Assembly: GCA_048938445.1 (NCBI GenBank)
Contig: JBHLME010000001.1
Location: 1 to 64,000 of the forward strand
Reading direction: 5' to 3'
DNA from: Promethearchaeota archaeon
GTDB taxonomy: Archaea; Asgardarchaeota; Lokiarchaeia; Sigyniarchaeales; SOKP01
Length of the DNA: 64,000 bases
Part shown: positions 4,757 through 23,449 of the stretch, piece after piece
Numbering within the stretch: position 1 is the stretch's first letter
Layout: each line of letters opens with the position of its first letter
The notes under the pieces: model-generated
Databases searched by the model: none
What the model was told of the DNA's origin: nothing
Seen by the model: only the letters and a program-made list of their open reading frames with translations
Made by a program: the position numbers and the translations under genes

Positions 4757-5803
4757 TTAAATATTAATTTCTCTCATTGTTAATAAGTTTTTCGCGATTT
4801 GGTCAAATGCATCTAAGACATTACTACCATTTAATGCAGAAGTTTCAATATATCCAAAATTCAATTCTTTAGATAATTTTTGAGCGTCTTGTGCCTTTAC
4901 TTCTCGATAAGATAAATCACTTTTATTTCCAATAAGAACTCCGCTAATTTTATCGATATTAATTACATTTTCTTTTATATCTTTAAAAGAATCATAAATA
5001 CTATTAAAAGTTTCGAGCCTTGACAGATCAAAAACAATTATAACACCATCAGCTCCTTGATAAAATTGTTTCCTCATTAAGAAAAAACGTTCCTGTCCAG
5101 CAATGTCCCAGAGAGCAAACTGGACCTTAATGTTATTAACGTCTAAACCTTTCTCGCTGATATTAACTCCTAAAGTAGGGAGATATGATCTACTAAAAGC
5201 ATTAGCAGTAAATCTTAAAATTAAAGAAGATTTTCCTACTTCCGCATCGCCTATGACAATTAATTTAAAAATATATTCAGGTTTATCTGTTTTAAGAGAT
5301 ACTTTTTTTGGTGAAATCATTTCTTTAAAAGCAAGTTCTTTATTTTTTAATTCTTCAAGGACTTTCTTAATTTTATCAGCAACTATTAGAATATATTTTT
5401 TAAATTCTTCACTACTAGAGCCCGATAGTTCTAATTCAATCAAATTCTTAGAATATTCCTCACAGGCTACCTCTAAATCTTCTCGATATTTGTAAAAAAT
5501 TACATCATCTTCTTCATTAAAAAGAAACGTTAGACAACTACGTGCTAAACCTCCTCGACGAGTTTCATCTTTCCATTTTAAATACCATATAAATCCTTTT
5601 TTTTTATAAGAAGGAAATGGAACAATAACAACGGATTTTGGAGTATATCCTTGTTCAGCTGTCAATAAGCTTATTGATTTGATACCTGCCAATATTTTTA
5701 ATTTTTCATCAAGATCATTAGGACTCCAAACTAAAGGGGTTGTCCCATGAATATCATCATATTGAATATACACAATTCCAGTTATTATATCCTTTTCATT
5801 CAT
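4757..5803 (-). CDS. Rab-like small GTPase with N-terminal uDENN/longin-like domain
   Basis: G1 GDAEVGKS, G2 YLPTLG, G3 WDIAGQE, G4 NKSD, G5 ETSA. The N-terminal ~150 aa share motifs with the N-termini of 21929..23449 and 45824..47242. Confidence 0.85.
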   Translation of the reverse strand: MNEKDIITGIVYIQYDDIHGTTPLVWSPNDLDEKLKILAGIKSISLLTAEQGYTPKSVVIVPFPSYKKKGFIWYLKWKDETRRGGLARSCLTFLFNEEDDVIFYKYREDLEVACEEYSKNLIELELSGSSSEEFKKYILIVADKIKKVLEELKNKELAFKEMISPKKVSLKTDKPEYIFKLIVIGDAEVGKSSLILRFTANAFSRSYLPTLGVNISEKGLDVNNIKVQFALWDIAGQERFFLMRKQFYQGADGVIIVFDLSRLETFNSIYDSFKDIKENVINIDKISGVLIGNKSDLSYREVKAQDAQKLSKELNFGYIETSALNGSNVLDAFDQIAKNLLTMREINI

Positions 5804-5903
5804 GAATAAACAATTTTAAAAATAAATTAATTAATAATTTTTTACTTCTATTGAGTTACATGTTTTATATCGATTTATTTTTATCTTTCTTTTTTTTCAG
5901 ATG

Positions 5904-5923
5904 AAAAAAGGGACGTTTCCCTT
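5904..5923 (-). terminator. Hairpin + U-tract terminator
   Basis: The minus strand reads AAGGGA-AACG-TCCCTT-TTTT, overlapping the stop codon of 5922..6326. Confidence 0.5.
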
Positions 5924-6326
5924 ATTGTTCTCCACCACAGTTTTCACAATATTGTGCTGTTTTGTTAATTTGAAATCCGCATAGAGGACAAAATTTTTTT
6001 TCTATATATTCTTCTGATACATCCGATTGAGTTTTTATATATGAAGTCTCGTCTTGGACAAATGGTAGTTTTTGTGGTAACTTGATCATTGGGATGAACT
6101 GTTTGCAATTAATGCATTCCATCTTTCCCTTTTTCGCTAATCTAAATGCTTTTCTTTGACCTAATCCTGATAATTGTCCCATACAATCTACACACCAGAC
6201 TTTTCTACAATTATTACAAGAAAAAAAATAATTTCCCCATTCTTCTACAAAATATCTCTTGTTATTCGTGTTTCTGCCACAGATCACGCAGTTATATGGA
6301 GAATCCGGTCTATTTTTTGCATACAT
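5922..6326 (-). CDS. Eight-cysteine cross-brace-type (FYVE/RING-like) zinc finger plus C-terminal zinc ribbon
   Basis: CVIC...CNNC-x4-CVDC...CINC followed by CPLCG...CENCG. Confidence 0.7.
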   Translation of the reverse strand: MYAKNRPDSPYNCVICGRNTNNKRYFVEEWGNYFFSCNNCRKVWCVDCMGQLSGLGQRKAFRLAKKGKMECINCKQFIPMIKLPQKLPFVQDETSYIKTQSDVSEEYIEKKFCPLCGFQINKTAQYCENCGGEQ

Positions 6327-6465
6327 TTTATATAATATATTATTAAATTAGCTTATAGATCTTATATTTTAATGATTTAAAAATTGTCTTTATTCTTTAA
6401 ATTTTTGAATAAAATATAGTAAGTGTAAAAAGTATTACTTTAAAGTAACTTAACAAAAAATAAGT

Positions 6466-6744
6466 CTAATCTTTTATTGGTTCTAACATGGATATAATGC
6501 GGTATATCGTCGAGCGTGAATGAAACGGGATATTTGGATCTTGGGAGAGATCATCAATATTATAGATCACGTTACTTGCGATGATACCAGGAGTTTCACC
6601 GCTTTCACCAGATAATTCATTAATAGATCTTTGCGCAACTCTTTTTATATTTCTTGGTACAGATCTATCATTTAACATTCCTTCTAATAATTCTATAACA
6701 TCTTGAAAAGTTTTTTTTACAACTTCCTCACTAACTTTCGGCAT
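6466..6744 (-). CDS. UPF0147 family archaeal protein
   Basis: Motifs D.SVPRNI[KR]R.A and L..DPN[IM]P.H.R..I. Confidence 0.9.
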   Translation of the reverse strand: MPKVSEEVVKKTFQDVIELLEGMLNDRSVPRNIKRVAQRSINELSGESGETPGIIASNVIYNIDDLSQDPNIPFHSRSTIYRIISMLEPIKD

Positions 6745-7031
6745 TAAATTGACTCACCTAAATTAATGTAATTAGTAATAAGTATTTTTATTGAGTGAAT
6801 ATTACTTAAAATTTAATTTTTATCTTTTTGTTAATATTTAACTAAAAGCAAATGTTAAGATACAAAAAAGTTAGGAATTTAACGCAAAAAGATAATATTA
6901 ACAAAAAAAATTGATTAAATGAAAAATTTTCATTCCGAAATTTTTATTTTACATTTTAAATTATAAACAAAATAAAATATTTTAAACACAGCTTATATAT
7001 CCGATGAAAAATTAACGAACTGGTTATAAAA

Positions 7032-9698
7032 ATGTCATCAACAGAAAAAAAATATATTTATACATTTAGAGAAGGAAGTAAGGATATGAAAAATATTCTT
7101 GGTGGAAAAGGAGCCAATTTAGCAGAAATGACGGGATTAGGTCTAGCCATTCCCCAAGGTTTTACTATTTCATGTCAAGCCTGCTTGGATTATTTCAATG
7201 ACCCTGATAGTTTTATTGAAAAGATTAGACAAGATGTCATGGATCACGTGAAGGGTTTAGAAAAGGAAGCAGGTAAAACTTTCGGAGCAGATTCTAATGC
7301 TTTATTAGTAAGTGTTCGAAGTGGAGCACCAATGTCAATGCCTGGAATGATGGACACTGTTTTAAATTTGGGTTTAAATGATAAAGCAGTAGTAGGTCTT
7401 GCTGAAGAAACGCAAAATGAACGATTTGCTTATGATGCGTATAGACGTTTCATTCAAATGTTTGGTGATGTCGTCATGGGCATCGAATTGGAACATTTTG
7501 AAGAAATTTTAAATAAATACAAGGAAGCTAAGGGTAAAGGAACTCAAGATACGGATCTAACTGTAGAAGATCTTAAAAAGATCATAGAAGATTACAAGTT
7601 ATTATACAAAAAGCATATTGGAGAAGATTTTCCACAAGAACCTATCAAGCAATTATTCTTGGCAATTCGAGCGGTTTTTGATTCTTGGAATAATAAAAGA
7701 GCAATTACTTATAGAAGAATAAATAAAATTCCTAATTTTGGAACCGCTGTAAATGTCCAATCAATGGTTTTTGGGAATAAAGGGTGGGATTCAGGAACAG
7801 GTGTAGCCTTTACAAGAGATCCTTCAACAGGAGAAAAAGTAAAGTTCGGAGAATATCTCCCTAATGCTCAAGGTGAAGATGTAGTTGCTGGAATCCGCAC
7901 TCCAAAAAAATTAGATGAAATGAAAGAGGAATTCCCAGAGGTTTATAATGAATTGATGGACACAATGGATAAACTAGAAAATCATTATAAGGACATGCAA
8001 GACATCGAATTTACTATTGAAAATGGAAAATTATTTCTTTTACAAACCAGAAATGGGAAAAGAACACCGCAAGCTGCCATAAAAATTGCTGTTGATAGCG
8101 TAAAGGAAGGATTGATTACAAAAGAAGAAGCTATAATGTCCATCGATCCTAATATCATTTCAAACCTGTTATTCAAGCATATTGATGAGAAAAATGCAGA
8201 CATGTCAAAATTAATAGCTCAAGGGATTAATGCTTCACCAGGAGCAGTAACCGGGAAGGTGGTATTTGAAGCCGATGATGCTGTGAAATTAGCGGAAAAG
8301 GAAGGTGAAGATATAATTCTTGTAAGACCTCAAACAAAACCAGATGATGTACATGGTTTATTTGCAGCAAAAGGGGTTTTAACTCAATTTGGAGGAAAGA
8401 CTTCACATGCTGCAGTCGTAGCTAGAGGAATGGGAAAACCTGCTGTTGTCGGCGCTCAAATGCTCTGTATAAATCTTGATAAGAAAATGTGTGATCTTGG
8501 TGAAAATTTAATCCAGGAAGGAGATATTATAACTATTGATGGTGCAACAGGTAAGGTATTTAAGGGTGAAATGCCTTTAATCGACCCAGAATTAAAGGGA
8601 GAATTTGTCGAGTTATTAAATATGGCAGATGAAATCAAAGCTTTAGGAGTTAGAGCTAATGCCGACACACCCGAAGATGCAACAAAAGCAATAGAATTTG
8701 GAGCAGAAGGAATAGGTCTTTGTAGAACTGAACACATGTTCATGGCACAAGAAAGATTACCTGTTGTCCAACAAATGATAATGGCTGAGACGGATGAACA
8801 ACGCCAAAAAGCTCTGGATAAAATTTTACCAATGCAGAAAGGAGATTTCTATGAGATTTTTAAGATAATGAAAGATAAACCAGTAACAATTCGATTGTTA
8901 GATCCTCCTTTACACGAATTCTTACCTGAACTAGAAGTTGTATTACTAGAACATCAAGAGCTTAAACTAAAAGGAAGTTCGGTTGAAGAAATTGAATCAA
9001 AGGAAAATGTAATTACTAAAATCCGTTCTTTATCCGAAGAAAATCCAATGATGGGACTTCGTGGTTGCCGTTTAGGAATAACTTGGCCTCAAATCAATGA
9101 AATGCAAGTAAAAGCCATTTTCCAAGCAGCTTGTGAACTTAAAAAAGAGGGAATTAATGCTATCGTAGAAGTAATGATTCCACTTGTTGGTAATATCAAT
9201 GAACTGACATTTGTTAAGAAAGATTTGGTAAAAATCGCTGCAGAAACGATTAAAAGTTATGGTGTGAATCTTGATTATAAATTTGGTACGATGATTGAAG
9301 TCCCACGTGCAGCTTTAACTGCAGGTAAAATAGCTGAAGAAGCAGAATTTTTCTCGTTTGGAACAAATGATTTAACACAGATGACTTTTGGATTTTCAAG
9401 GGATGATGCGGAAGGAAAATTTATCCCAATTTATTTGGAAAAGGGTATATTGAAGGACAATCCATTTGAAGTCTTGGATCAAGAAGGCGTAGGTAAGTTA
9501 ATGAAAATGACAATTAAAGATGGACGAGAGACACGACCAGACTTGAAATGTGGAATTTGCGGTGAACATGGAGGTGAACCTAGTTCAGTGATTTTTGGAC
9601 ATGATATTGGACTGAATTATGTTTCATGCTCTCCATTCAGGCTTCCTATCGCTAGAATTGCTGCAGCTCAAGCAAATATAATAAACAAAAAGGAGTAA
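7032..9698 (+). CDS. ppdK: Pyruvate, phosphate dikinase
   Basis: LGGKGANLAEM, VSVRSGA..SMPGMMDT, phospho-His GGKTSHAAVVARG, GIGLCRTEHMF, SFGTNDLTQ, GICGEHGG. Confidence 0.98.
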   Translation: MSSTEKKYIYTFREGSKDMKNILGGKGANLAEMTGLGLAIPQGFTISCQACLDYFNDPDSFIEKIRQDVMDHVKGLEKEAGKTFGADSNALLVSVRSGAPMSMPGMMDTVLNLGLNDKAVVGLAEETQNERFAYDAYRRFIQMFGDVVMGIELEHFEEILNKYKEAKGKGTQDTDLTVEDLKKIIEDYKLLYKKHIGEDFPQEPIKQLFLAIRAVFDSWNNKRAITYRRINKIPNFGTAVNVQSMVFGNKGWDSGTGVAFTRDPSTGEKVKFGEYLPNAQGEDVVAGIRTPKKLDEMKEEFPEVYNELMDTMDKLENHYKDMQDIEFTIENGKLFLLQTRNGKRTPQAAIKIAVDSVKEGLITKEEAIMSIDPNIISNLLFKHIDEKNADMSKLIAQGINASPGAVTGKVVFEADDAVKLAEKEGEDIILVRPQTKPDDVHGLFAAKGVLTQFGGKTSHAAVVARGMGKPAVVGAQMLCINLDKKMCDLGENLIQEGDIITIDGATGKVFKGEMPLIDPELKGEFVELLNMADEIKALGVRANADTPEDATKAIEFGAEGIGLCRTEHMFMAQERLPVVQQMIMAETDEQRQKALDKILPMQKGDFYEIFKIMKDKPVTIRLLDPPLHEFLPELEVVLLEHQELKLKGSSVEEIESKENVITKIRSLSEENPMMGLRGCRLGITWPQINEMQVKAIFQAACELKKEGINAIVEVMIPLVGNINELTFVKKDLVKIAAETIKSYGVNLDYKFGTMIEVPRAALTAGKIAEEAEFFSFGTNDLTQMTFGFSRDDAEGKFIPIYLEKGILKDNPFEVLDQEGVGKLMKMTIKDGRETRPDLKCGICGEHGGEPSSVIFGHDIGLNYVSCSPFRLPIARIAAAQANIINKKE

Positions 9699-9714
9699 GA
9701 CTCCATTTCTTTTT
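9692..9714 (+). terminator. Hairpin + T-rich terminator after ppdK
   Basis: GGAGT-AAG-ACTCC followed by ATTTCTTTTT. Confidence 0.4.
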
Positions 9715-9874
9715 CCTATTAATATTTTTTATTAATTATCAATTAAAGTCTCTTTACTTAATTAAAATTAATTTTACGATAATAATCATATTAATAGTAG
9801 GATTTATATATTCGCCGAATTAACTAAATTATATTATTTTTTAAAAAAAAAAAAGTAAATTAAGTGGAAAATAT

Positions 9875-10609
9875 ATGGTTTTAATATTAACTATAGATGG
9901 ATGGCTTAATGGAATAACCTCATCAATTATCGTTTTTACAAGTATAATTTTTGGAATCTTTTATATCTATAAAGGCACTAAACTTAAAGCAAATTTGCTC
10001 ATTGTAGGAGGATTTATGGCAGCATTTACTGGTTTATTATGGTCAGGACCCACTATTGATTTATTTTGGATTTTATTAACTCCTGGAAATGGGAACGTCA
10101 GTGAACTCTTCTATGTAATAATTAGTTATGTATGGGTAGCACCTGCAACTACATTTTCTTTATATCTAGGTTCTAGACTATTATTCCAAAAAAAGAAACT
10201 ACTCTCTAATATTTTTACAATCATATTTTTTGGAATTGGTATACTTTTTGAAGTAATTCTCTTCTCAACTATATTCTTAGGTACTGAATTTCTTTTTGAT
10301 ATTGATACAATTTACACTCCAGCTTTACAAATTGTTGAGGCCTCCTTTGCAAGAGGTAGTTTAGGATATTTATTAATTTTATTAATTTTAGTAGGTGTAT
10401 TGGCGATAAATGGTGTGGGATCAATAATTGCAGCTATTAAGGGAACAGGATTGGTAAGAAAAAAATTTACTTATCTATCAATCACATGGTTTCTTTTTGT
10501 AACAGTTGCGGTTTTTGATGCCTTACTACCTCCCGTTCCAATATTATTCATTGCACGAATGGGAATGGTTGTTGAGGTAATACTCTTATATCTAGCTTTG
10601 AAACCTTAG
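9875..10609 (+). CDS. Seven-TM membrane protein of unknown function (paralog-like to 31549..32292)
   Basis: About 7 hydrophobic segments, with layout similar to 31549..32292 (W.G/P in TM2, basic loop before TM6). Confidence 0.65.
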   Translation: MVLILTIDGWLNGITSSIIVFTSIIFGIFYIYKGTKLKANLLIVGGFMAAFTGLLWSGPTIDLFWILLTPGNGNVSELFYVIISYVWVAPATTFSLYLGSRLLFQKKKLLSNIFTIIFFGIGILFEVILFSTIFLGTEFLFDIDTIYTPALQIVEASFARGSLGYLLILLILVGVLAINGVGSIIAAIKGTGLVRKKFTYLSITWFLFVTVAVFDALLPPVPILFIARMGMVVEVILLYLALKP

Positions 10610-10630
10610 ATAAAATAGGTTTTTTTTTTT
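10601..10630 (+). terminator. Hairpin + poly-T terminator
   Basis: AAACCT...AGGTTT stem followed by a T run, between convergent genes. Confidence 0.4.
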
Positions 10631-10662
10631 CTTTTATTTTTTAGAGTAATTATTTTTCATAA

Positions 10663-11466
10663 TTAATTATTTCTTTTAATAGCTTGATTAAATAACCGTG
10701 TCATTTTTAACTCAAGTTTATTGGGAGGAATTAATTCTAACATTATTTCCTTAAATTTATCAATAAAACCATTCTTTAATTCATTGGGCAATACACTGAG
10801 ATAGGGAACTAATGCAGCAGCTTTAGAATAATTAATCAACTCATTTTCATCTCTAAATGTTCTATTGAACTTATAAATTTCTGTATTTATCTCTTTAAAC
10901 CCAATTTTCTTTAAAATTAATTTGGTTTCTTTAGTAGAAAGAAAACGCCAAGGAAATTCAATTGAATTGAAATATTCCTTGTATTTCGATAATTTGGAAA
11001 TTTTATAAAGTGCTTTAAAAAGAACGTTTAATTCTTTAAGACCTGTTTGAATAATCATACGCCCCTTGTCATTTAAAGCATTATAGATTAATTCATACAT
11101 CAATTCTAAATTTATAATCCAATGAATTGCAGAATTAGAGAACACTGCATCAAATTTATTTTGATACGTAATATCAAGTGCATTCATACGCAAGATCTCG
11201 ACATTATTAATTCCAAACTTTAATAAATTTTTATTAGCTTGAGATATCATATCTGTTGAGAGTTCAATTGCTGTGATTGAGCCATTTGGTATCTTTTTTG
11301 CAATTTCAATCGTGAGCATTGCATTACCACATCCAATCTCTAAAATATTTTCCCCATCCTTGGGTTTTAATCGCTCTATTGCTATCAATCCCAGTTCAAA
11401 CTGCCATCGTGAACTTTTTTGATAGAGTTCAGCATCCCATTTAAAGCTTTTTTGATTCATTATCAC
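10663..11466 (-). CDS. Class I SAM-dependent methyltransferase (trans-aconitate methyltransferase-like)
   Basis: WDAELY, ILEIGCG motif I, FDAVFSNSAIHW. Confidence 0.85.
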   Translation of the reverse strand: MIMNQKSFKWDAELYQKSSRWQFELGLIAIERLKPKDGENILEIGCGNAMLTIEIAKKIPNGSITAIELSTDMISQANKNLLKFGINNVEILRMNALDITYQNKFDAVFSNSAIHWIINLELMYELIYNALNDKGRMIIQTGLKELNVLFKALYKISKLSKYKEYFNSIEFPWRFLSTKETKLILKKIGFKEINTEIYKFNRTFRDENELINYSKAAALVPYLSVLPNELKNGFIDKFKEIMLELIPPNKLELKMTRLFNQAIKRNN

Positions 11467-11511
11467 TTATCTTTATAAAAAAGTTAACTTGGATTGTTTA
11501 TTACATGTGTC

Positions 11512-12030
11512 TTAGCTTAAATAGTTTTCAAATACTTTATAATCAGAATCAGTATATAAACAGAAAATTACCTCCTCGATTTGAGTTTCTGCTTTTAAAT
11601 ATTCTTTTGTAATAGAAATCATGATTTTTGCACATCTTCTGATAGGATAACCAAAGATACCCGTGGATATGGCGGGGAATGCTATAGATTTTAAAGAATG
11701 TTTGTCCATCAATTTAAGACTATTTAAAGTAGCATTTTTAAGCTTATTATCTTCATTTCCTTCACCCATTCTAGGACCGACAGCATGAATTACGTGTCTT
11801 GCTTTTAGATTGCCTCCAGTAGTTATTACAGCACCACCTACGATGGTCCCCCCTATTTTATTACATTCTTCTTGAATAGAAGGACCCCCTTTATTCCTAA
11901 TTGCTCCAGCAACACCCCCCCCTAAGATTAATTGTTTATTTGCTGCATTTACTATCACATCCGTGCTTAACTCAGTAATATCTCCTTGAACAAGTTTAAT
12001 TTTTGATTTACCAATTTTTAATTCTTTCAT
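11512..12030 (-). CDS. Macro domain protein (O-acetyl-ADP-ribose deacetylase / ADP-ribosylhydrolase, MacroD-like)
   Basis: GDIT, IVNAAN..L..GGGVAGAI, VIHAVGP, SIAFPAISTGIFGYP. Confidence 0.95.
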   Translation of the reverse strand: MKELKIGKSKIKLVQGDITELSTDVIVNAANKQLILGGGVAGAIRNKGGPSIQEECNKIGGTIVGGAVITTGGNLKARHVIHAVGPRMGEGNEDNKLKNATLNSLKLMDKHSLKSIAFPAISTGIFGYPIRRCAKIMISITKEYLKAETQIEEVIFCLYTDSDYKVFENYLS

Positions 12031-12296
12031 TTATGCCCACCATCTTAATTTTTTAAATAAAAGATTTAATTGATGATGATACAATCAATTAAGTGATATT
12101 ATTAGAAATTAGTTTTTATAATATTAGTTTTTTCAAAATTAAAATGATTTACGCGAAAAATTATATTTTATGAAAACTTGATTAAGAAAATTTATAATAT
12201 CCTAAAATATTTAAAAAGTATATGATTAACACTTAAGAAAGTTTTAAGTTCATAAAAAATAAGGTTAATGGTAAAAATAAGTTTTAAAGGATCTAA

Positions 12297-13235
12297 ATGA
12301 TATCAAGGATTTTAGTTATTGCTTCGGGGGGTTTAATCGCATATGCTAAGTCTTTTGTTGGAGAAACAATTGATCAGTATCTCAATGAAATCTCAGAATC
12401 AGATTTAATCGGAGGTTTTATTTCAGCAATTAGTAATTTTGCAATGGAGATTAAAGGAGGACGAGTGAATTCCCTAAATTTTAAACATTTTAATATCATT
12501 TTCACGAGTGATGAAGAACTTGATATAATGTTTGTTCTAATATGTGATATTGATGATATAGAAGAAGAAGTAAGAGAAAAAGCGGAGTTATTAAAAACAG
12601 AGTTTTTAAAGAGGTATAAAGAAAACATAATAAAATGGACCGGTGAAATAAGTATATTTCAAGGAATTGATCAATATGTGGAAGAAAATATATTCATACC
12701 ACCAAAAATTCTATTAGTAGGAGAAAATGGTGTAGGTAAATCAACTATCATGGATTTATTCCCTGGAGAAGTTGTCATTCAATTAGATGATGACTTGAAT
12801 GAGATAATACAAAAACCTATTAATGTATCAGGTTTAGACCTAAAACAATTTATCTTAAGAGAAATAAATATTAATGATTTAATTGATAATTCAAAACATT
12901 ATAGAACCTTATTAAATTCGGTCGATGTAATTTGTCTTGTAACTAATTCTGCGGCAAGTAATCTTGGGCGAACTAAGAAACTATATGAAATATTAAAACA
13001 AAAAGTTAAAAGAGCAGATTTCTATATCATTGCTAATTTTCAAAATGTCAAGGAACAAGCATTTGATCCTCTAAAAATTGAGGAGTCATATGGTGTAAAA
13101 ACTTATGGTTTTTCAGCTACTAGTTCAAAGGCAAAAAAAGAAATATTCAAAATCACGGTTGAAATATTAAAGACTTCAATACTTGAGAAAATCAAGTCAA
13201 GTCAGAGAGAAGTAACGCAAGATAATCAGATATAA
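12297..13235 (+). CDS. Longin-domain protein fused to a divergent small-GTPase-like domain
   Basis: N-terminal longin pattern (GL....F, DLIGGFISAI..FA.E, F..RY) and P-loop GENGVGKS. G3 and G4 are non-canonical (LREIN, ANFQN); G5-like FSAT. Confidence 0.75.
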   Translation: MISRILVIASGGLIAYAKSFVGETIDQYLNEISESDLIGGFISAISNFAMEIKGGRVNSLNFKHFNIIFTSDEELDIMFVLICDIDDIEEEVREKAELLKTEFLKRYKENIIKWTGEISIFQGIDQYVEENIFIPPKILLVGENGVGKSTIMDLFPGEVVIQLDDDLNEIIQKPINVSGLDLKQFILREININDLIDNSKHYRTLLNSVDVICLVTNSAASNLGRTKKLYEILKQKVKRADFYIIANFQNVKEQAFDPLKIEESYGVKTYGFSATSSKAKKEIFKITVEILKTSILEKIKSSQREVTQDNQI

Positions 13236-13265
13236 TTATTTACATAAATACTTAGAAGAGAAAAA

Positions 13266-13799
13266 ATGACCATTGATGAAGATTTTGTTTTTCCAATATA
13301 TATCTCTCAGAAGGTATTGCAGCAAATTATAAAAATCTGTAAAAATAATAGATTTGAGGTATTTGGGTATCTTGTGGGAGAACGATACACGTGGAAACAA
13401 AAAAATTACGTAATAATTAACCATTATCTTTTTAAAGAAGAAGCTGTTCATGGAATGAGAGCTTTAGTTGAAGAATCTGGAGAAACTAACATTGCCCATG
13501 ACGATAGAGATAGATTGGATACAATAGAATTTGAATTTCTTAAATATGTAGATGAATTTGAAAAATTGAAAAGAAAGGAAAATAATGACAACTTACTTAA
13601 TATTGGTTGGTGGCATTCTCATCCAGGATTTGGATGTTTTTTAAGTCATATTGACATCGCAACACAAAAAGATATTTTTTTTCAACCATATCATGTGGCT
13701 TTAGTGGTTGATCCTATAAGAAACGAGTTAGCCTTTTTTACATTAGATAAAAATTCTAAGAAGGGATATCGAGAAATAGATTTTGCTACAATAGCTTAA
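13266..13799 (+). CDS. JAB/MPN+ metalloprotease (Rpn11/CSN5-like deubiquitinase)
   Basis: Catalytic Glu in EVFGYLVG and JAMM motif GWWHSHPGFGCFLSHIDIATQ, plus ALVVDP. Confidence 0.95.
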   Translation: MTIDEDFVFPIYISQKVLQQIIKICKNNRFEVFGYLVGERYTWKQKNYVIINHYLFKEEAVHGMRALVEESGETNIAHDDRDRLDTIEFEFLKYVDEFEKLKRKENNDNLLNIGWWHSHPGFGCFLSHIDIATQKDIFFQPYHVALVVDPIRNELAFFTLDKNSKKGYREIDFATIA

Positions 13800-13822
13800 T
13801 TAATATTGAGATTTAAGTAATA

Positions 13823-14698
13823 ATGTTTGAAAATAATTCTGATTACGAAATCGTTGAAGAAGAATCAATTGATGATGACATGTATGACCGTCAAAAAAGA
13901 ATTAAAGGATGGGATCAAAAAAAGATATCTAATGCTGCAGTGATGGTTATTGGTGCCGGAGCCACGGGAAATGAAGTCGTAAAAAATTTAGTACTGTTTG
14001 GAATTGGAAAAATTATTCTTGTTGATTATGACTTCATAAATATTTCAAATTTGAATAGGTGTGTTCTCTTTAATATCAAGAGTGCTGAAAAAAAAGAATA
14101 TAAAGCAGATGTAGTTAAAGAAGCGTGTAGAGATTTAAATCCAAATGTTGAAATAATCGCATTAAAAGAAAACTTGGAAGATATTGATAAGAATTTCTAT
14201 AAATGTGATGTTATTTGCTCTTGTGTCGATAATATTGAAGCGCGATTACAAGCCAATAATTATGCTTATTATTATGGTACTCCATTTATAGATAGTGGAA
14301 TCGATGAGTTTTTTGGTAGCGTTCAAGCGGTTTACTCCGGAATGGAAGAAACTGCATGTTTACAATGTGGTATTTCAAATGCAGATTTAGACTTAATGTG
14401 GAAAAAATTTTCTTGTACTGGAGAAGAAATTGAATCTGAAAATGGAGAAACGGTTGGAAAAATGGCGACTATTATAACAACAACCTCAATAATTGGTGGA
14501 ATTCAAGCGCAACAAGTCCTCAAATTCATTTTAGGCATTGAAAATTTTAAAGAGCATGGAAAGTGGAATCCTTACATTGGAGATCCGCTTATTGGAAAAC
14601 AATTAAATTATAATGGTTATACCAATAAGTTTGAAATTATTGAAAAATTAAAAAATCCAGAATGTTGGACTTGTTCGTATAACAAAATGAAAAAATAA
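13823..14698 (+). CDS. E1 ubiquitin-like activating enzyme (ThiF/UBA family)
   Basis: YDRQ, GAGATGNE, D.D....SNLNR, DN.EAR, zinc pairs CLQC and CWTC, candidate catalytic Cys in FSCT. Confidence 0.95.
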   Translation: MFENNSDYEIVEEESIDDDMYDRQKRIKGWDQKKISNAAVMVIGAGATGNEVVKNLVLFGIGKIILVDYDFINISNLNRCVLFNIKSAEKKEYKADVVKEACRDLNPNVEIIALKENLEDIDKNFYKCDVICSCVDNIEARLQANNYAYYYGTPFIDSGIDEFFGSVQAVYSGMEETACLQCGISNADLDLMWKKFSCTGEEIESENGETVGKMATIITTTSIIGGIQAQQVLKFILGIENFKEHGKWNPYIGDPLIGKQLNYNGYTNKFEIIEKLKNPECWTCSYNKMKK

Positions 14699-14764
14699 TA
14701 AAAATAAATAATCAAAAAATTTCTATATTAATATTAAGAATTAATAAAATAAACGATTTGAAAG

Positions 14765-15313
14765 ATGCCAGAATTACCGTTTGAAATTTGGAAAGATAGA
14801 ATTGATAATGAAATCAAGGGATTAGAGAGATTGAACGTTCTCGAAAAAGAATCTGTAATTAAAGATGAAGATGCGGTTGAGATGATTATAAACATTGATG
14901 CTTTCGGATTTATTAAAGAAATGGGTGAACTTAAGCCTAAAAAATCTCATCGTATTTATTTAAAGATTAATAGATCTTTCCCCTATCCTGGCGGAATAGA
15001 TTTTTCATGGTATTCCCCTATTTATCATCCCAATATACATCCTGTTCAATTAGATAATGGAAAACCTGGAACAGGATACATTTGCTTAAATGTTTTGAAA
15101 AAATGGTCACGTCTATCTGACTTAGATACTACTGTGAAAGCATTAAAAATGTTAGTAGAAAATCCAAACCCTGAAGATCCGCTTAATTATGATGTATGTC
15201 TAGATGCAACTGAATTTTTCAAAAATAACTCAATGGAAGAACTAAAGAAAAGATATGATTTTCAATCCACTGAAGATGAAGATAATAATGATATTATAAT
15301 CCTCGATGACTAA
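14765..15313 (+). CDS. E2 ubiquitin-conjugating enzyme (UBC fold)
   Basis: FPY, IYHPNI motif, catalytic Cys in GYICLNVL, W, and NPNPEDPLN. Confidence 0.95.
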   Translation: MPELPFEIWKDRIDNEIKGLERLNVLEKESVIKDEDAVEMIINIDAFGFIKEMGELKPKKSHRIYLKINRSFPYPGGIDFSWYSPIYHPNIHPVQLDNGKPGTGYICLNVLKKWSRLSDLDTTVKALKMLVENPNPEDPLNYDVCLDATEFFKNNSMEELKKRYDFQSTEDEDNNDIIILDD

Positions 15314-15335
15314 ACCTTTAGATGGTGTTGATAAA

Positions 15336-15464
15336 ATGGGAGAAGACGATTATCATTCTGTTGACGATTCAATAGAAATTGAGGAGCCTAAAATTATGGA
15401 AAAAAAACCACCTAATGATAAAATAATTGCTCATTATTTAGTTAGTAAAATGGAGAAGAAATAA
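15336..15464 (+). CDS. Small 42-aa protein at the end of the E1-E2 operon (not in the ORF track)
   Basis: MGEDDYHSVDDSIEIEEPKIMEKKPPNDKIIAHYLVSKMEKK. GGTG SD-like motif 8 nt upstream; starts 22 nt after the E2 stop and fills the gap to the Ubl gene. Confidence 0.5.
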   Translation: MGEDDYHSVDDSIEIEEPKIMEKKPPNDKIIAHYLVSKMEKK

Positions 15465-15488
15465 ATCAATCTTGTATATAATAAGAAA

Positions 15489-15743
15489 TTATCCCCCAAC
15501 TACTCTTGCCCATAGAGCTAATTTATCGTTTTCTTTAAGGCCAAATTTATGAATTGCGTCTTGAATCGTTATTGCAGGAGGTAATTCCTTCCCATTAAGT
15601 ACTAAAGTATAGCTTCTTTGTTCTGCACTTATTATTCCCATGTGCTTAACAATAATATCAACTATACGTTCAATTTTATGGTGTTCTTTTACATCTAATT
15701 TAATTAATTTACCCGTCCGTGAATCCTCAACCTGAATTCTCAT
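15489..15743 (-). CDS. Ubiquitin-like protein
   Basis: 84 aa with a beta-grasp pattern (MRIQV...GK.I.LDV...LVLNGKEL....TI......L.END.L.L) ending RVVGG-stop. Confidence 0.92.
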   Translation of the reverse strand: MRIQVEDSRTGKLIKLDVKEHHKIERIVDIIVKHMGIISAEQRSYTLVLNGKELPPAITIQDAIHKFGLKENDKLALWARVVGG

Positions 15744-15903: not shown

Positions 15904-16650
15904 TTATTTATGATCATCTTCATGATCGTGTTCATGATCATGTGGTTGTCCCTTATGTAAGATCTCATCTAATTTTGCTCTATCTTCATCCGACATTTTG
16001 CTCATTGCTTCCATTTGTTGTTTTATCAGAGATTTCATGAAATTATTAGAAATAATCTGACTTAAAATTGGTAATGAAATTCTCATTCTGGTTAATTCTA
16101 AGAACATTATTTTGGCAATCTCTCTCATTTCTTTGAGCTCTTCTTTTGTCATGCCCTCTTCCCCGATACCCGGACAATTTTCATCAACTATGATAAAATT
16201 TGTACCATTAAATTCTAAAGGATAAGTCCGACAACTTAATGGTCGATTATCATAAATCAAGCATTTTTTTTGCTCCTTGTTATACAGAGGACATTTCTGA
16301 TCTAATAATTTTTCTAAAGGTACTGTCGCAAAGGGATCTTGTTGTTGATTTTCTGGAGTTCCTCCTGATTCTTGGGGAGCGAGGGGTTTTAAAATTAAAT
16401 CAAATCCTCCATCAGGTTTATTATATATATCTAAGTATGGTAAAAAATTAGCTATAACACCATTTTTAGCCCATAATTCTAAATCCCATGTAGTTATTGG
16501 AATTGGACCTCTTGCTACACAACAATCATCACATCGAGTACATTTAAATGTAAATTTTGCTTTAGGTTTTTCTTCTTCAACTTTTTCTTCTTCTTTCTTT
16601 ATTTCTTCTTTAACTTCTGCACTATCATCCTTTTGATTATTTTCTGTCAA
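15904..16650 (-). CDS. YkgJ-family cysteine-cluster protein with His/Asp-rich tail
   Basis: FKCTRCDDCC, CPLY...C.IY..RP..CR.YP, CPGIG; tail HDHEHDHEDDHK. Confidence 0.85.
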   Translation of the reverse strand: MTENNQKDDSAEVKEEIKKEEEKVEEEKPKAKFTFKCTRCDDCCVARGPIPITTWDLELWAKNGVIANFLPYLDIYNKPDGGFDLILKPLAPQESGGTPENQQQDPFATVPLEKLLDQKCPLYNKEQKKCLIYDNRPLSCRTYPLEFNGTNFIIVDENCPGIGEEGMTKEELKEMREIAKIMFLELTRMRISLPILSQIISNNFMKSLIKQQMEAMSKMSDEDRAKLDEILHKGQPHDHEHDHEDDHK

Positions 16651-21928: not shown

Positions 21929-23449
21929 CTAAGAAATATAACGCAATAATAACTCTTTATTTCGGTTTAGAAAATCATTTAATGAATTATCAATTTCTAT
22001 TTTTTTATTTTCATCATCAATCAGAATTAAAATAAACAATTCGTTTCCTAAAACAATGACTCGTTTTATTAGGATTACAGAATGAGAAATTTTAAAAAGA
22101 GCTTCTTCTTTTTTCAAAGCTTTGAACTTTGAGAATATTTTGTATATAATTGCAAATTGAGGAGCTGTTATCTCGAACACGTCACGTATTTTTCTCTCTT
22201 CATATTCTTCGGATTCTAAGGCAATTTCTTCGAATTCCAAGAATTCAGTAAGTAATACATAACTATTAGAATAATAATCTGCTAAAACTAATCCATCATC
22301 TGTCAAGATTAATGATAGGAATATCTTATTTTTCTCTGAAAAACCCTTGAGATTATAATTTATCATATCTCTATTAGGACTTAAATTCGAAATCCCGGAT
22401 GAAAATGCTCTTAATATGCTAAAAATAGAAAAAATGCTAGTTACATGAATTTCTGGATCTTCATCCCCACTTAATACTTTAATTTTCGATTTAGCCAATT
22501 GTATATTTTTTTGAATCTTTTTAGAATTTATAATATCTGGATCGGCTTTCGTTAACACGTATAAGATTGGTGTTTTTTGGTTAAAGTGAGACAATCTTTC
22601 TTTAATTTTTTTCAAATATTCGATGCTCTCATCAAATCGATCTTTATTTCTTACATCAATAAAAAAGAATAACAAATCTGCTTCATATAAATAAATCTTA
22701 GATTTACTAATATATCGTTCTCTGAATTTTGCTTGTCCTCCCAAATCCCATAAAGAGATGGTTGCACCCAATGCTTCTATTGTAGAAATGCTTGCACCTC
22801 GAGTAGGTTTTAAACCTATTAAGCGTGAATATTTACGATCTACAGTAAGTAAAAAGCTTGTTTTGCCCGCAGCATCAAGCCCTAAAAATATGATTTTTAA
22901 TTTTCTTTCACTAGTGATTGGTGCAATGGGAAATTTTTCTATTTTGATCATCTTTTCAAGAAGATCTATATAATGATGTTCCAACTCTTCTACTGGTCTA
23001 AAACCATTTATTATGTCCTCATCAAATTTAATAAAAAGATCAAAAATTATAGTTTGTATAGCTGAAATATTGTTATAAAGAAAACTTCGTTGATTTTCAT
23101 CAACCATTATTGCAAAGGCTGAAGGTATTGGATTGGTTTTTCCTTCAATCCATATGAAATGAAAAAAGGCAAGTGCTGTAATTTTAAAATCAGGATAGGG
23201 AATAATTGCAAAATATTTGACATTAGAGAAATTTTCATTTCTCGTAGCTACTTGATCTTCCATTAATAAACTTAACATTTTTATTGCCATTTGAGTATAA
23301 TCTCGTATGGTATATACTTGTTCCTCTGATTCTTTTTTTTCTTTGTCTGTGACTGGATTTGGAAAAGTATATTTTGGCATTGGACCAAATTCATCAAATG
23401 CAGCGAATAATATACATTTAATTATTGATTTTTTTAATAATTCCTTCAT
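21929..23449 (-). CDS. uDENN/longin-like + Arf/Rag-like GTPase + roadblock-like three-domain protein
   Basis: GLDAAGKT, PTRG, WDLGGQ, TKAD, TSIF; N-terminal FDEFGP.P; C-terminal ILTDDGLVLA roadblock-like start. Confidence 0.85.
   Translation of the reverse strand: MKELLKKSIIKCILFAAFDEFGPMPKYTFPNPVTDKEKKESEEQVYTIRDYTQMAIKMLSLLMEDQVATRNENFSNVKYFAIIPYPDFKITALAFFHFIWIEGKTNPIPSAFAIMVDENQRSFLYNNISAIQTIIFDLFIKFDEDIINGFRPVEELEHHYIDLLEKMIKIEKFPIAPITSERKLKIIFLGLDAAGKTSFLLTVDRKYSRLIGLKPTRGASISTIEALGATISLWDLGGQAKFRERYISKSKIYLYEADLLFFFIDVRNKDRFDESIEYLKKIKERLSHFNQKTPILYVLTKADPDIINSKKIQKNIQLAKSKIKVLSGDEDPEIHVTSIFSIFSILRAFSSGISNLSPNRDMINYNLKGFSEKNKIFLSLILTDDGLVLADYYSNSYVLLTEFLEFEEIALESEEYEERKIRDVFEITAPQFAIIYKIFSKFKALKKEEALFKISHSVILIKRVIVLGNELFILILIDDENKKIEIDNSLNDFLNRNKELLLRYIS

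Follow-up and report, generated by a model that had tools for sequence, protein, structure and literature searches.

A ubiquitin-like conjugation cassette with a conserved longin-GTPase and micro-protein in one order of Asgard archaea

Bacterial Bil operons carry genes for an E1, an E2, a JAB protein or other deubiquitinase (DUB) and a ubiquitin-like protein (Ubl), and they are not known to contain an E3. In the archaeon Caldiarchaeum subterraneum, as described in passages of Hennell James et al. (2017; PMC5654768), the corresponding operon encodes ubiquitin, E2-like and E1-like proteins and a small RING finger protein, with an adjacent Rpn11-like JAMM protein; the small RING protein is the E3 of that system. 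Here, we describe a related cassette in a 64,000-nucleotide stretch of DNA from a Promethearchaeota archaeon (contig JBHLME010000001.1 of GenBank assembly GCA_048938445.1, positions 1 to 64,000), which is referred to below as the window. At positions 12297-15743 of the window, genes for a longin-GTPase, a JAB, an E1, an E2 and a micro-protein face a convergent gene for a Ubl. We interpret this cassette, with moderate confidence, as a lineage-specific, vertically inherited Ubl tagging module of one Lokiarchaeia-type Asgard group.

The 'eukaryotic signature' protein (ESP) genes of Asgard archaea are mostly scattered, and it is hence hard to tell which of them act together. Passages of the preprint by Liu et al. 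(2020; 10.1101/2020.10.19.343400) place most ESP genes outside conserved neighbourhoods and mention longin-GTPase fusions; the operon described here is absent from those passages. The word 'GTPase' does not occur in the text of Hatano et al. (2022; PMC9192718). No description of the operon was found in the literature searched as full text, a search that did not extend to the supplementary tables of Asgard ESP papers, which might list it.

Layout and conservation of the locus

The window sequence belongs to one contig of a 4.6-Mb assembly of 256 contigs (96.5% complete, 8% contaminated). A sequence-only reading had described five co-oriented open reading frames (ORFs) and a convergent Ubl ending in VVGG, and all six are found where it had placed them:

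12297-13235, + strand: longin-GTPase (ORF1), 312 aa
13266-13799, + strand: Rpn11-like JAB/MPN+ metalloprotease, 177 aa (PF01398, 1.8e-11)
13823-14698, + strand: compact E1 activating enzyme of the ThiF family, 291 aa (PF00899, 6e-52)
14765-15313, + strand: UBC-type E2 (UQ_con), 182 aa (PF00179, 1.4e-10)
15306-15464, + strand: micro-protein ORF, 52 aa when read from the first ATG or 42 aa when read from that at 15336
15489-15743, - strand: ubiquitin-family modifier (Ubl), 84 aa, C-terminus VVGG, convergent to the enzyme genes

The gaps between ORF1, JAB, E1 and E2 are 30, 23 and 66 nt, and the micro-protein ORF overlaps the E2 stop by 8 nt; its 42-aa form is the version in the public gene calls (P0197). 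As had also been stated, there is no RING or HECT gene among the ORFs of the locus or their family matches.

The neighbourhood of the longin-GTPase was surveyed in 20 loci around ORF1 orthologues, taken from 60 related genomes, onto which the window proteins were mapped. In what follows, f1 denotes the family of the window organism and f4 the second family bearing cassette genes. Downstream DNA is available at 18 of the loci, and in 17 of these, which cover two families, the GTPase is followed by JAB and E1; the one locus that departs from this belongs to a third paralogue, from a genome in which a full cassette is present as well. Two more loci are cut by contig ends. Of the 20 loci, 13 contain the E2, 12 the convergent Ubl and 12 the full cassette. 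When all ORFs of 17 loci were compared with one another and clustered in an unbiased way, the same core emerged. The survey thus shows that the longin-GTPase is truly syntenic in relatives, standing ahead of JAB and E1, so that the lack of synteny named in the sequence-only reading as a ground for refutation does not apply; together with the clustering it indicates that the association of a small GTPase with Ubl tagging is a conserved feature of the cassette. Genome by genome, an ORF1 orthologue and the Ubl occur together in 17 of the 60 relatives and both are missing from 40; the ORF1 orthologue occurs alone in two (genomes 74% and 68% complete) and the Ubl alone in one (83% complete). These counts come from kin and are not independent, and no statistics are given.

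The survey also bears on whether the longin-GTPase might be a mere neighbour with no functional tie to the Ubl system. Dozens of longin/roadblock-GTPase paralogues are found in Asgard genomes, with 17 matches in the present one, and other GTPase genes also lie near the cassette, all of which would suit a chance association. However, it is a specific orthologue that stands directly 5' of the JAB in these 17 loci from two families, with a spacing of 30 nt in the window. This orthologue co-occurs with the Ubl genome by genome, and the micro-protein gene shares the upstream region of the GTPase gene in 12 loci. We regard the purely fortuitous association as very improbable.

Of 400 genomes of the phylum, 76 have a Ubl orthologue, 73 of them at E ~1e-29 or better. 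The tallies are 71/134 in f1, 4/4 in f4, 0/14 in family f2 and 0/247 in the remaining genomes; the cassette occurs in only two families, both of one Asgard order. Identity to the window proteins within f1 is 75-94% for the Ubl, 69-84% for the E1 and 59-76% for the E2, with ranges of 41-56% for the JAB and 43-61% for the GTPase; one fragment from the same genus carries a JAB that is 77% and a GTPase that is 71-74% identical. In f4 the GTPase-JAB-E1 trio is clustered, and two genes stand apart from it: that for the Ubl, at 81-83% identity, and that for the E2, at 55-60%, which was found in three of the four genomes.

We note three further observations on these loci. In one f4 genome (locus L044, G045:C1, 7743-9587) the E1 frame stops after 113 aa and is followed by a 485-aa ORF on the opposite strand, which reflects either an interrupted gene or an assembly problem. 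Several genomes contain two to four Ubl paralogues. At G030:C40:37429-39382, about 10 kb from a full cassette, there is a trimmed second set with a Ubl paralogue at 60% identity, a fragment that resembles the GTPase (43% over residues 132-296) and the C-terminal portion of a seven-transmembrane (7TM) protein with a Cys-rich domain of the type described below.

The modifier and its enzymes

When a profile built from 12 Ubl orthologues was compared with PDB sequences, almost all of the matches were to ubiquitin or polyubiquitin (7e-11 summed for polyubiquitin, ~0.5 for a single ubiquitin). In Pfam the Ubl has a weak match to Rad60-SLD, and a search of the protein atlas returned clusters that are unnamed or labelled 'ubiquitin-like' and nothing else. 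Judged by its sequence, the Ubl is a ubiquitin-family modifier with a C-terminal Gly-Gly.

Each of the three enzymes retains its catalytic residues. The JAMM residues E31, H117, H119, S127 and D130 of the JAB (E...HxHx7Sx2D) are invariant in an alignment of 16/16 orthologues, and the JAB profile, compared with the sequences of solved structures, finds the Caldiarchaeum Rpn11-like protein (6fjv) first (2.6e-16), followed by Rpn11, CSN5 and AMSH. The E1 consists of an adenylation domain with a tetracysteine zinc site and Cys198; its GxGxxG motif, R79, D136, C179xxC182, C281xxC284 and Cys198 (in an FSC motif) are invariant in 15/15 orthologues. For the E2, the HPN motif (residues 88-90) and Cys107 are invariant in 14/14 orthologues, the PF00179 score is 41 bits against a cut-off of 27, and the profile matches the canonical E2s UBE2T, Rad6 and Ubc13 at ~1e-15. 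The catalytic motifs reported in the sequence-only reading are therefore present in the window and invariant in its orthologues, and with the enzyme families they support the assignment of the locus as an operon for Ubl conjugation and deconjugation.

The role first proposed for the JAB, that of a deconjugase rather than a maturase, fits the present genome, in which the Ubl ends at the Gly-Gly, but probably does not extend to the family. Ten of 13 Ubl orthologues carry 1-4 residues beyond the Gly-Gly, and only those of the window, L031 and L040 stop there. Because of these extensions, the JAB of the family probably acts as both maturase and deconjugase. A double role of this kind has been shown for the Rpn11 homologue of the Caldiarchaeum system, which trims a nine-residue propeptide before the E1 can act, according to passages of PMC5654768.

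The relationships of the E1 speak to the possibility that the cassette activates a sulfur carrier of the SAMP/MoaD/ThiS type and does not tag proteins. The enzyme is a member of the ThiF/MoeB superfamily, and NCBIfam ThiF/MoeB models match it below their cut-offs. Among the sequences of solved structures, however, the E1 profile finds the active adenylation domain of Uba1 first (1.6e-36), with UBA6/7 and SAE2 also near and UBA5 among the relatives; its matches to MoeB (9e-22) and bacterial BubCD (3e-12) are weaker. The locus contains a UBC-type E2 with its catalytic Cys and a JAB isopeptidase, and two better ThiF/MoeB-type genes are found elsewhere in the genome (C137 and C80). Sulfur-carrier activation is thus extremely improbable.

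An E1, E2, JAB and Ubl with no E3 is also the minimal set of antiviral defence systems of the bacterial Bil/Bub/CBASS-Cap2-Cap3 kind. The patchy spread over 71/134 genomes of the family, a Macro-domain gene next door in this genus and weak matches to the PADLOC JAB (1e-8) and E1-E2 models (5e-16, over the E1 part only) would be in keeping with such a role. Against it, the enzymes are nearest to Uba1, Rpn11 and UBC of the eukaryotic/Caldiarchaeum type and not to bacterial BubCD (3e-12 versus 1.6e-36 for Uba1), while the E2 and the Ubl have no match in PADLOC 2.0 (2023), a library which may predate the Bil models. Identity of the Ubl amounts to 75-94% between genera and 81-83% between families, which fits a conserved cellular modifier and not a defence gene that evolves fast. 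Furthermore, the identities track taxonomy, the base composition of the cassette is that of the surrounding DNA and the flanking genes are housekeeping-like (PPDK and an M1 peptidase). We consider a function in defence to be quite unlikely.

The E2 ends in a C-terminal tail (residues ~170-182, nt 15272-15310) composed of an acidic run, four I/V/L residues and D/E. This tail is kept in 14/15 orthologous E2s, including those of f4, and is absent from two other E2s of the same genome, which share just 21-29% identity with the window E2; a tail of this type is also missing from all 19 ORF1-family proteins examined. The other E2s belong to two further E1/E2 sets. The first, on contig C32 (~5897-12261), comprises two ubiquitin-family genes whose products have an acidic extension at the N-terminus, together with a 407-aa E1, an LRR protein, a 175-aa E2 and a 275-aa JAB. 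The second, on contig C5 (113-7199), comprises a 169-aa E2, a 530-aa E1, an 1183-aa MIT/TPR protein and a Ras-family GTPase. There is no RING gene in either cluster.

The longin-GTPase, the micro-protein and the 7TM proteins

The identity of ORF1 as a longin-GTPase is borne out by structure prediction and fold searches. At the sequence level the evidence is faint: Pfam and NCBIfam searches with ORF1 gave P-loop noise and no family match, the Pfam Longin model matches 2/20 family members at 0.11, and a search of PDB sequences returned weak ABC and Arl matches only. The AlphaFold2 model of ORF1 (45 homologues; pLDDT 81.8, pTM 0.75) shows a longin domain at residues 1-132 (12297-12692), an Arf/Arl/MglA-like G domain at residues ~133-300 and a C-terminal helix. 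The order of elements in the N-terminal half, as assigned by DSSP, is beta-beta-alpha-beta-beta-beta-alpha-alpha, which fits the longin sandwich. When the N-terminal domain was modelled alone (20 sequences; pLDDT 81.8), Foldseek matched it to AP-1/AP-2 sigma (1e-4), Sec22b (TM 0.66-0.68), TRAPP Bet5/Trs23, SRX of SR-alpha, Ykt6 and VAMP7. The G domain of ORF1 was matched by Foldseek to Arl1/Arf1/MglA at 1e-9 to 1e-7. Superposition of the ORF1 model (VIA-align) gave Z 13.9 with TRAPP 3cue_A over residues 1-135 (130 aligned, rmsd 3.0) and Z 17.4 with Arf1 (153 aligned, rmsd 2.7); over residues ~133-298 the model also matches Arl, Rab, RagD and the Asgard proteins HodArfR1 (Z 15.2) and LokiRagO (Z 14.9). 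In the LokiRagO structure (8yl2), chain residues 41-220 align with the G domain (residues 135-298 of the model, Z 14.9), and the structure is also among the matches of the N-domain model (Foldseek rank 49), whereas ORF1 has no sequence-level match to it at E up to 10.

The nucleotide-binding motifs of the family are unusual. Across 45 ORF1-family sequences G1 (GxxxxGK[ST]) and G5 (SA) are standard, the DxxG glycine of G3 and the catalytic Gln are absent from all, and G4 reads N-F-Q-D in 44/45, with N-F-Q-N in the window alone. The window protein departs from the family at three nucleotide-contact sites: T159V at the switch-I Thr (T in 41/45), D191N at the Walker-B Asp (D in 33/45) and D250N at the guanine-specificity Asp (D in 44/45, with N in the window only). 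As these alleles recur in contigs of an independent study, they are real. Position 13044, the first base of codon 250, is polymorphic, with A (Asn) in the window and in runs X1 and X4 and G (Asp, as in the family consensus) in run X5; the G (codon GAT) is taken from one low-depth contig of that run. ORF1 is a small GTPase by fold, but it does not have the full G1-G5 motif set, and a canonical GTPase cycle is doubtful, most so for the window protein. With these three residues lost, the GTPase of this organism is probably a scaffold whose nucleotide specificity is altered or which depends little on nucleotide state.

Two other observations concern this protein. In L030 (5721-8336), L036 (8339-10945) and L039 (6884-9496) the longin-GTPase is fused to a C-terminal carbon-nitrogen hydrolase of the nitrilase superfamily in a protein of ~870 aa, and in L036 and L039 this fusion is the sole cassette GTPase. 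Complex prediction for JAB, E2 and Ubl with the longin-GTPase as partner gave scores of 0.20 and 0.00 against a mark of 0.32, from which no verdict is drawn.

The small ORF between E2 and Ubl appeared at first to be specific to the genus and unconserved, as standard tblastn gave weak matches; a more sensitive tblastn overturned this. With alignment, the sensitive search finds 41-57-aa ORFs sharing the core I-x-E-[KQ]-[KR]-P-P-N-[DE]-K-I-I-x-[YF] in 14/14 f1 loci with enough DNA. Twelve of these loci have the ORF 73-330 nt upstream of the GTPase gene, in divergent orientation to it, while in the window and its congener it sits between E2 and Ubl. Pairwise differences at codon positions 1, 2 and 3 are 0.254, 0.238 and 0.496 (17 ungapped codons), a signature which indicates selection on the protein sequence of the micro-protein and not on a DNA element; each of its invariant Ile and Pro columns is encoded by 3-4 different codons. 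By these sequence criteria the small ORF is a real, conserved protein-coding gene, and it is newly recognised here as the conserved micro-protein gene of the cassette. A profile search found 115 database clusters, of which the named ones are all 'hypothetical protein' from Promethearchaeota, Lokiarchaeia or 'Hodarchaeota' bins, and for several entries the NCBI locus tag is next to that of an ORF1 homologue. The motif occurs once only in the six-frame translation of this genome and was not found in three f4 loci with a regular expression for this one pattern. The micro-protein is Lys-rich, carries a K-I-I-x-Y stretch and has neither a Pfam match nor a usable match in the protein atlas.

The clustering of neighbours also yielded a family of multi-pass membrane proteins (F6), present in 8/17 loci. 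In 7/13 Ubl-bearing cassettes an F6 gene is found no more than two genes away from the Ubl, on the same strand, and two more of these cassettes end at a contig edge. The C-terminal domain of these neighbours of the Ubl has the pattern C-x2-C-x11-12-C-x2-C-x4-C/H-x2-C-x10-C-x2-C, with eight zinc-ligand positions conserved in 9/9 sequences. A profile of this domain matches the RING E3s PCGF5, RNF4, TRIM37 and BMI1 in the PDB at 4e-4 to 6e-3, and PHD and TFIIH-p44 fingers as well; its Pfam matches, all below threshold, are zf-C3HC4_3 (3e-4), Prok-RING_1 and C1_2, and the membrane part matches HisKA_7TM. Full-length proteins with both the 7TM part and the Cys domain occur, among the matches listed, only in nine cassette-bearing genomes. 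Four such paralogues are encoded in the present genome, on contigs C13, C230, C204 and C60, and other RING-like matches are scattered over it. Near the cassette itself, clustering and tblastn of the organism's own genome place one member of the family:

9875-10609, + strand: 7TM membrane protein of family F6, 244 aa, lacking the Cys domain

The description of the operon as E3-less consequently stands for the window locus but not for the family, in which a RING-like F6 gene adjoins the Ubl in 7/13 cassettes. The E3-less look is probably local to this genome and not a family trait. Since F6 adjoins the Ubl in relatives and has paralogues here, the wider cassette includes a candidate membrane E3, and the suggestion that the longin-GTPase replaces an E3 is no longer needed.

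A cascade that dispenses with an E3 altogether would be the alternative: the E2 would modify a dedicated substrate directly, as in Atg12-Atg5 or Ubc9-type transfer, with the GTPase or the micro-protein as that substrate or as an E3-like adaptor. The window locus, in which RING and HECT genes are lacking, and the synteny of the GTPase in 17/18 assessable loci are consistent with this, as are the 4/11 assessable cassettes that have no 7TM RING-like gene beside the Ubl. The micro-protein, which is rich in Lys, always accompanies the cassette, and the Caldiarchaeum E1 and E2 auto-modify without an E3, as passages of PMC5654768 report. What argues against this alternative is the RING-like membrane protein itself, both beside the Ubl in relatives and in four copies here. 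In the split f4 cassette, moreover, the GTPase stays with JAB and E1 and not with E2 and Ubl, which fits a regulator of JAB/E1 at least equally well. We consider an E3-independent cascade possible but somewhat unlikely.

Several neighbouring genes were noted. The slot which the 7TM RING-like gene holds in other genera is taken in the window by a gene for a 248-aa CxxCxxCC-domain protein (15904-16650, - strand; PF03692, 1e-11). The N-terminus of this protein is rich in Lys and Glu and its tail in His and Asp. The gene, which is 160 nt upstream of the Ubl and has the same direction, was found at this place in the same genus only. Directly upstream of the operon are genes for a Macro-domain protein (11512-12030, - strand; PF01661, 3e-40) and a class I methyltransferase (10663-11466, - strand), whose position is conserved within the genus only. 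The window also encodes a 348-aa GTPase (4757-5803, - strand), with a Ras/Rab-like G domain (PF00071, 8e-46) and an N-terminal half that has no family match, and a 506-aa protein (21929-23449, - strand) with an Arf/RagA-like G domain between domains that have no family match. Relatives of these two multidomain GTPases (family F5) lie near the cassette in 8/17 loci. At locus L069 on contig C13 of this genome (7780-9020), three small ThiS/MoaD-like ORFs, one ending in AGG, stand beside a 581-aa ORF and 1.6 kb from one of the 7TM RING-like paralogues; they probably represent a sulfur-carrier context unrelated to the cassette.

Proposed mechanism and comparison with known systems

In the tagging module that we favour, the Ubl would be activated at its Gly-Gly by the compact Uba1-like E1, first as an adenylate and then as a thioester on Cys198, and would be handed to Cys107 of the UBC-type E2. 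The Rpn11-like JAB is predicted to remove the Ubl from its targets and, in most relatives, first to trim 1-4 residues off the Ubl precursor. Ligation would probably be aided by the 7TM proteins with the RING-like zinc domain; because these candidate ligases are membrane-embedded, whether encoded beside the Ubl, as in most genera, or on other contigs, as in this genome, the module most likely acts at the membrane. The longin-GTPase and the 41-57-aa micro-protein appear to be obligate companions of this cycle. The GTPase is most likely a regulator or adaptor that gates or localises JAB/E1, with a dedicated substrate as the main alternative. The former is favoured, though not strongly, because a split cassette leaves the GTPase beside JAB and E1 and because the GTPase evolves at the fast rate of the JAB. 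The micro-protein may be a regulatory or adaptor part, or a dedicated target.

Some observations weigh against the module in this form. The RING-like label for the F6 tail is weak, as it derives from sub-threshold sequence scores. The window locus has no RING-like gene, and the adjoining 7TM paralogue lacks the Cys domain. Proteins with the 7TM part only and Cys-domain proteins are also found in some cassette-free genomes, so that the link between F6 and the cassette is not exclusive. The absence of the DxxG glycine and the catalytic Gln from the whole GTPase family makes its GTPase cycle uncertain. Finally, the patchy spread of the cassette within f1 (71/134 genomes) implies that the module is dispensable.

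A more far-reaching proposal, which we think unlikely, is that the cassette forms a self-contained membrane pathway in which a 7TM sensor-like protein with a RING-like tail, the G protein with the micro-protein, and the Ubl-E1-E2-JAB cycle work together, the nucleotide state setting tagging or untagging. If true, this would be a prokaryotic circuit leading from a 7TM receptor through a small G protein to a Ubl tag, and a possible forerunner of the GTPase-controlled ubiquitin signalling of eukaryotic endomembranes. Selection across many genera appears to hold together the Ubl cycle, the longin G protein, the membrane RING-like protein and the micro-protein. The cassette is therefore a short list of six or seven small proteins that could be tested together in vitro, and offers a direct route to asking how ubiquitin-type tagging and GTPase switches first joined. 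It also illustrates that the E3-less look of a single genome can mislead when relatives are left out.

Of the systems to which the parts of the cassette can be compared, SUMO-interacting motifs (SIMs) and the docking motifs of compact E1/E2 pairs such as UBA5-UFC1 are short. The acidic tail of the E2 with its I/V/L residues, the K-I-I-x-Y stretch of the micro-protein and the compact E1 resemble them, by pattern alone. ORF1 is like LokiRagO (PDB 8yl2), MglA/MglB and SRX/SR-beta in pairing an Arf/Rag/MglA-like G domain with an alpha-beta sandwich of the longin/roadblock type. It differs from such pairs in that the longin domain comes first and the GTPase second, in a G3 motif without the DxxG glycine and in the N-F-Q-D form of G4, and none of these longin/roadblock-GTPase systems is linked to Ubl enzymes.

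As a set, the cassette shares with the Bil/Bub operons the minimal combination of E1, E2, DUB and Ubl and the lack of an E3 gene in the operon. Those operons are distant in sequence (BubCD, 3e-12) and include neither a GTPase nor a micro-protein, and the defence role is unlikely here. The Asgard ubiquitin/ESCRT clusters, as far as passages of Hatano et al. (2022; PMC9192718) describe them, likewise have clustered E1, E2, ubiquitin and JAB genes. An Asgard-type set of ubiquitin, E1, E2 and JAB is also present in this genome, on contig C32; the window cassette, in contrast, is a separate third E1/E2 set and is not beside ESCRT genes.

The cassette falls within the known kind of archaeal ubiquitylation operon and is not a separate kind of system. 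With that of Caldiarchaeum it has in common a clustered ubiquitin-family modifier ending in Gly-Gly, a compact E1, a UBC-type E2 and an Rpn11-like JAB, and in most relatives the Ubl precursors are shortly extended. It differs in that there is no gene for a small soluble RING protein, the candidate E3 being the RING-like tail of a 7TM protein which is absent from the window locus. Unlike the Caldiarchaeum operon, it adds a conserved longin-GTPase and a micro-protein, its E2 bears an acidic-hydrophobic tail and its Ubl gene is convergent to those of the enzymes.

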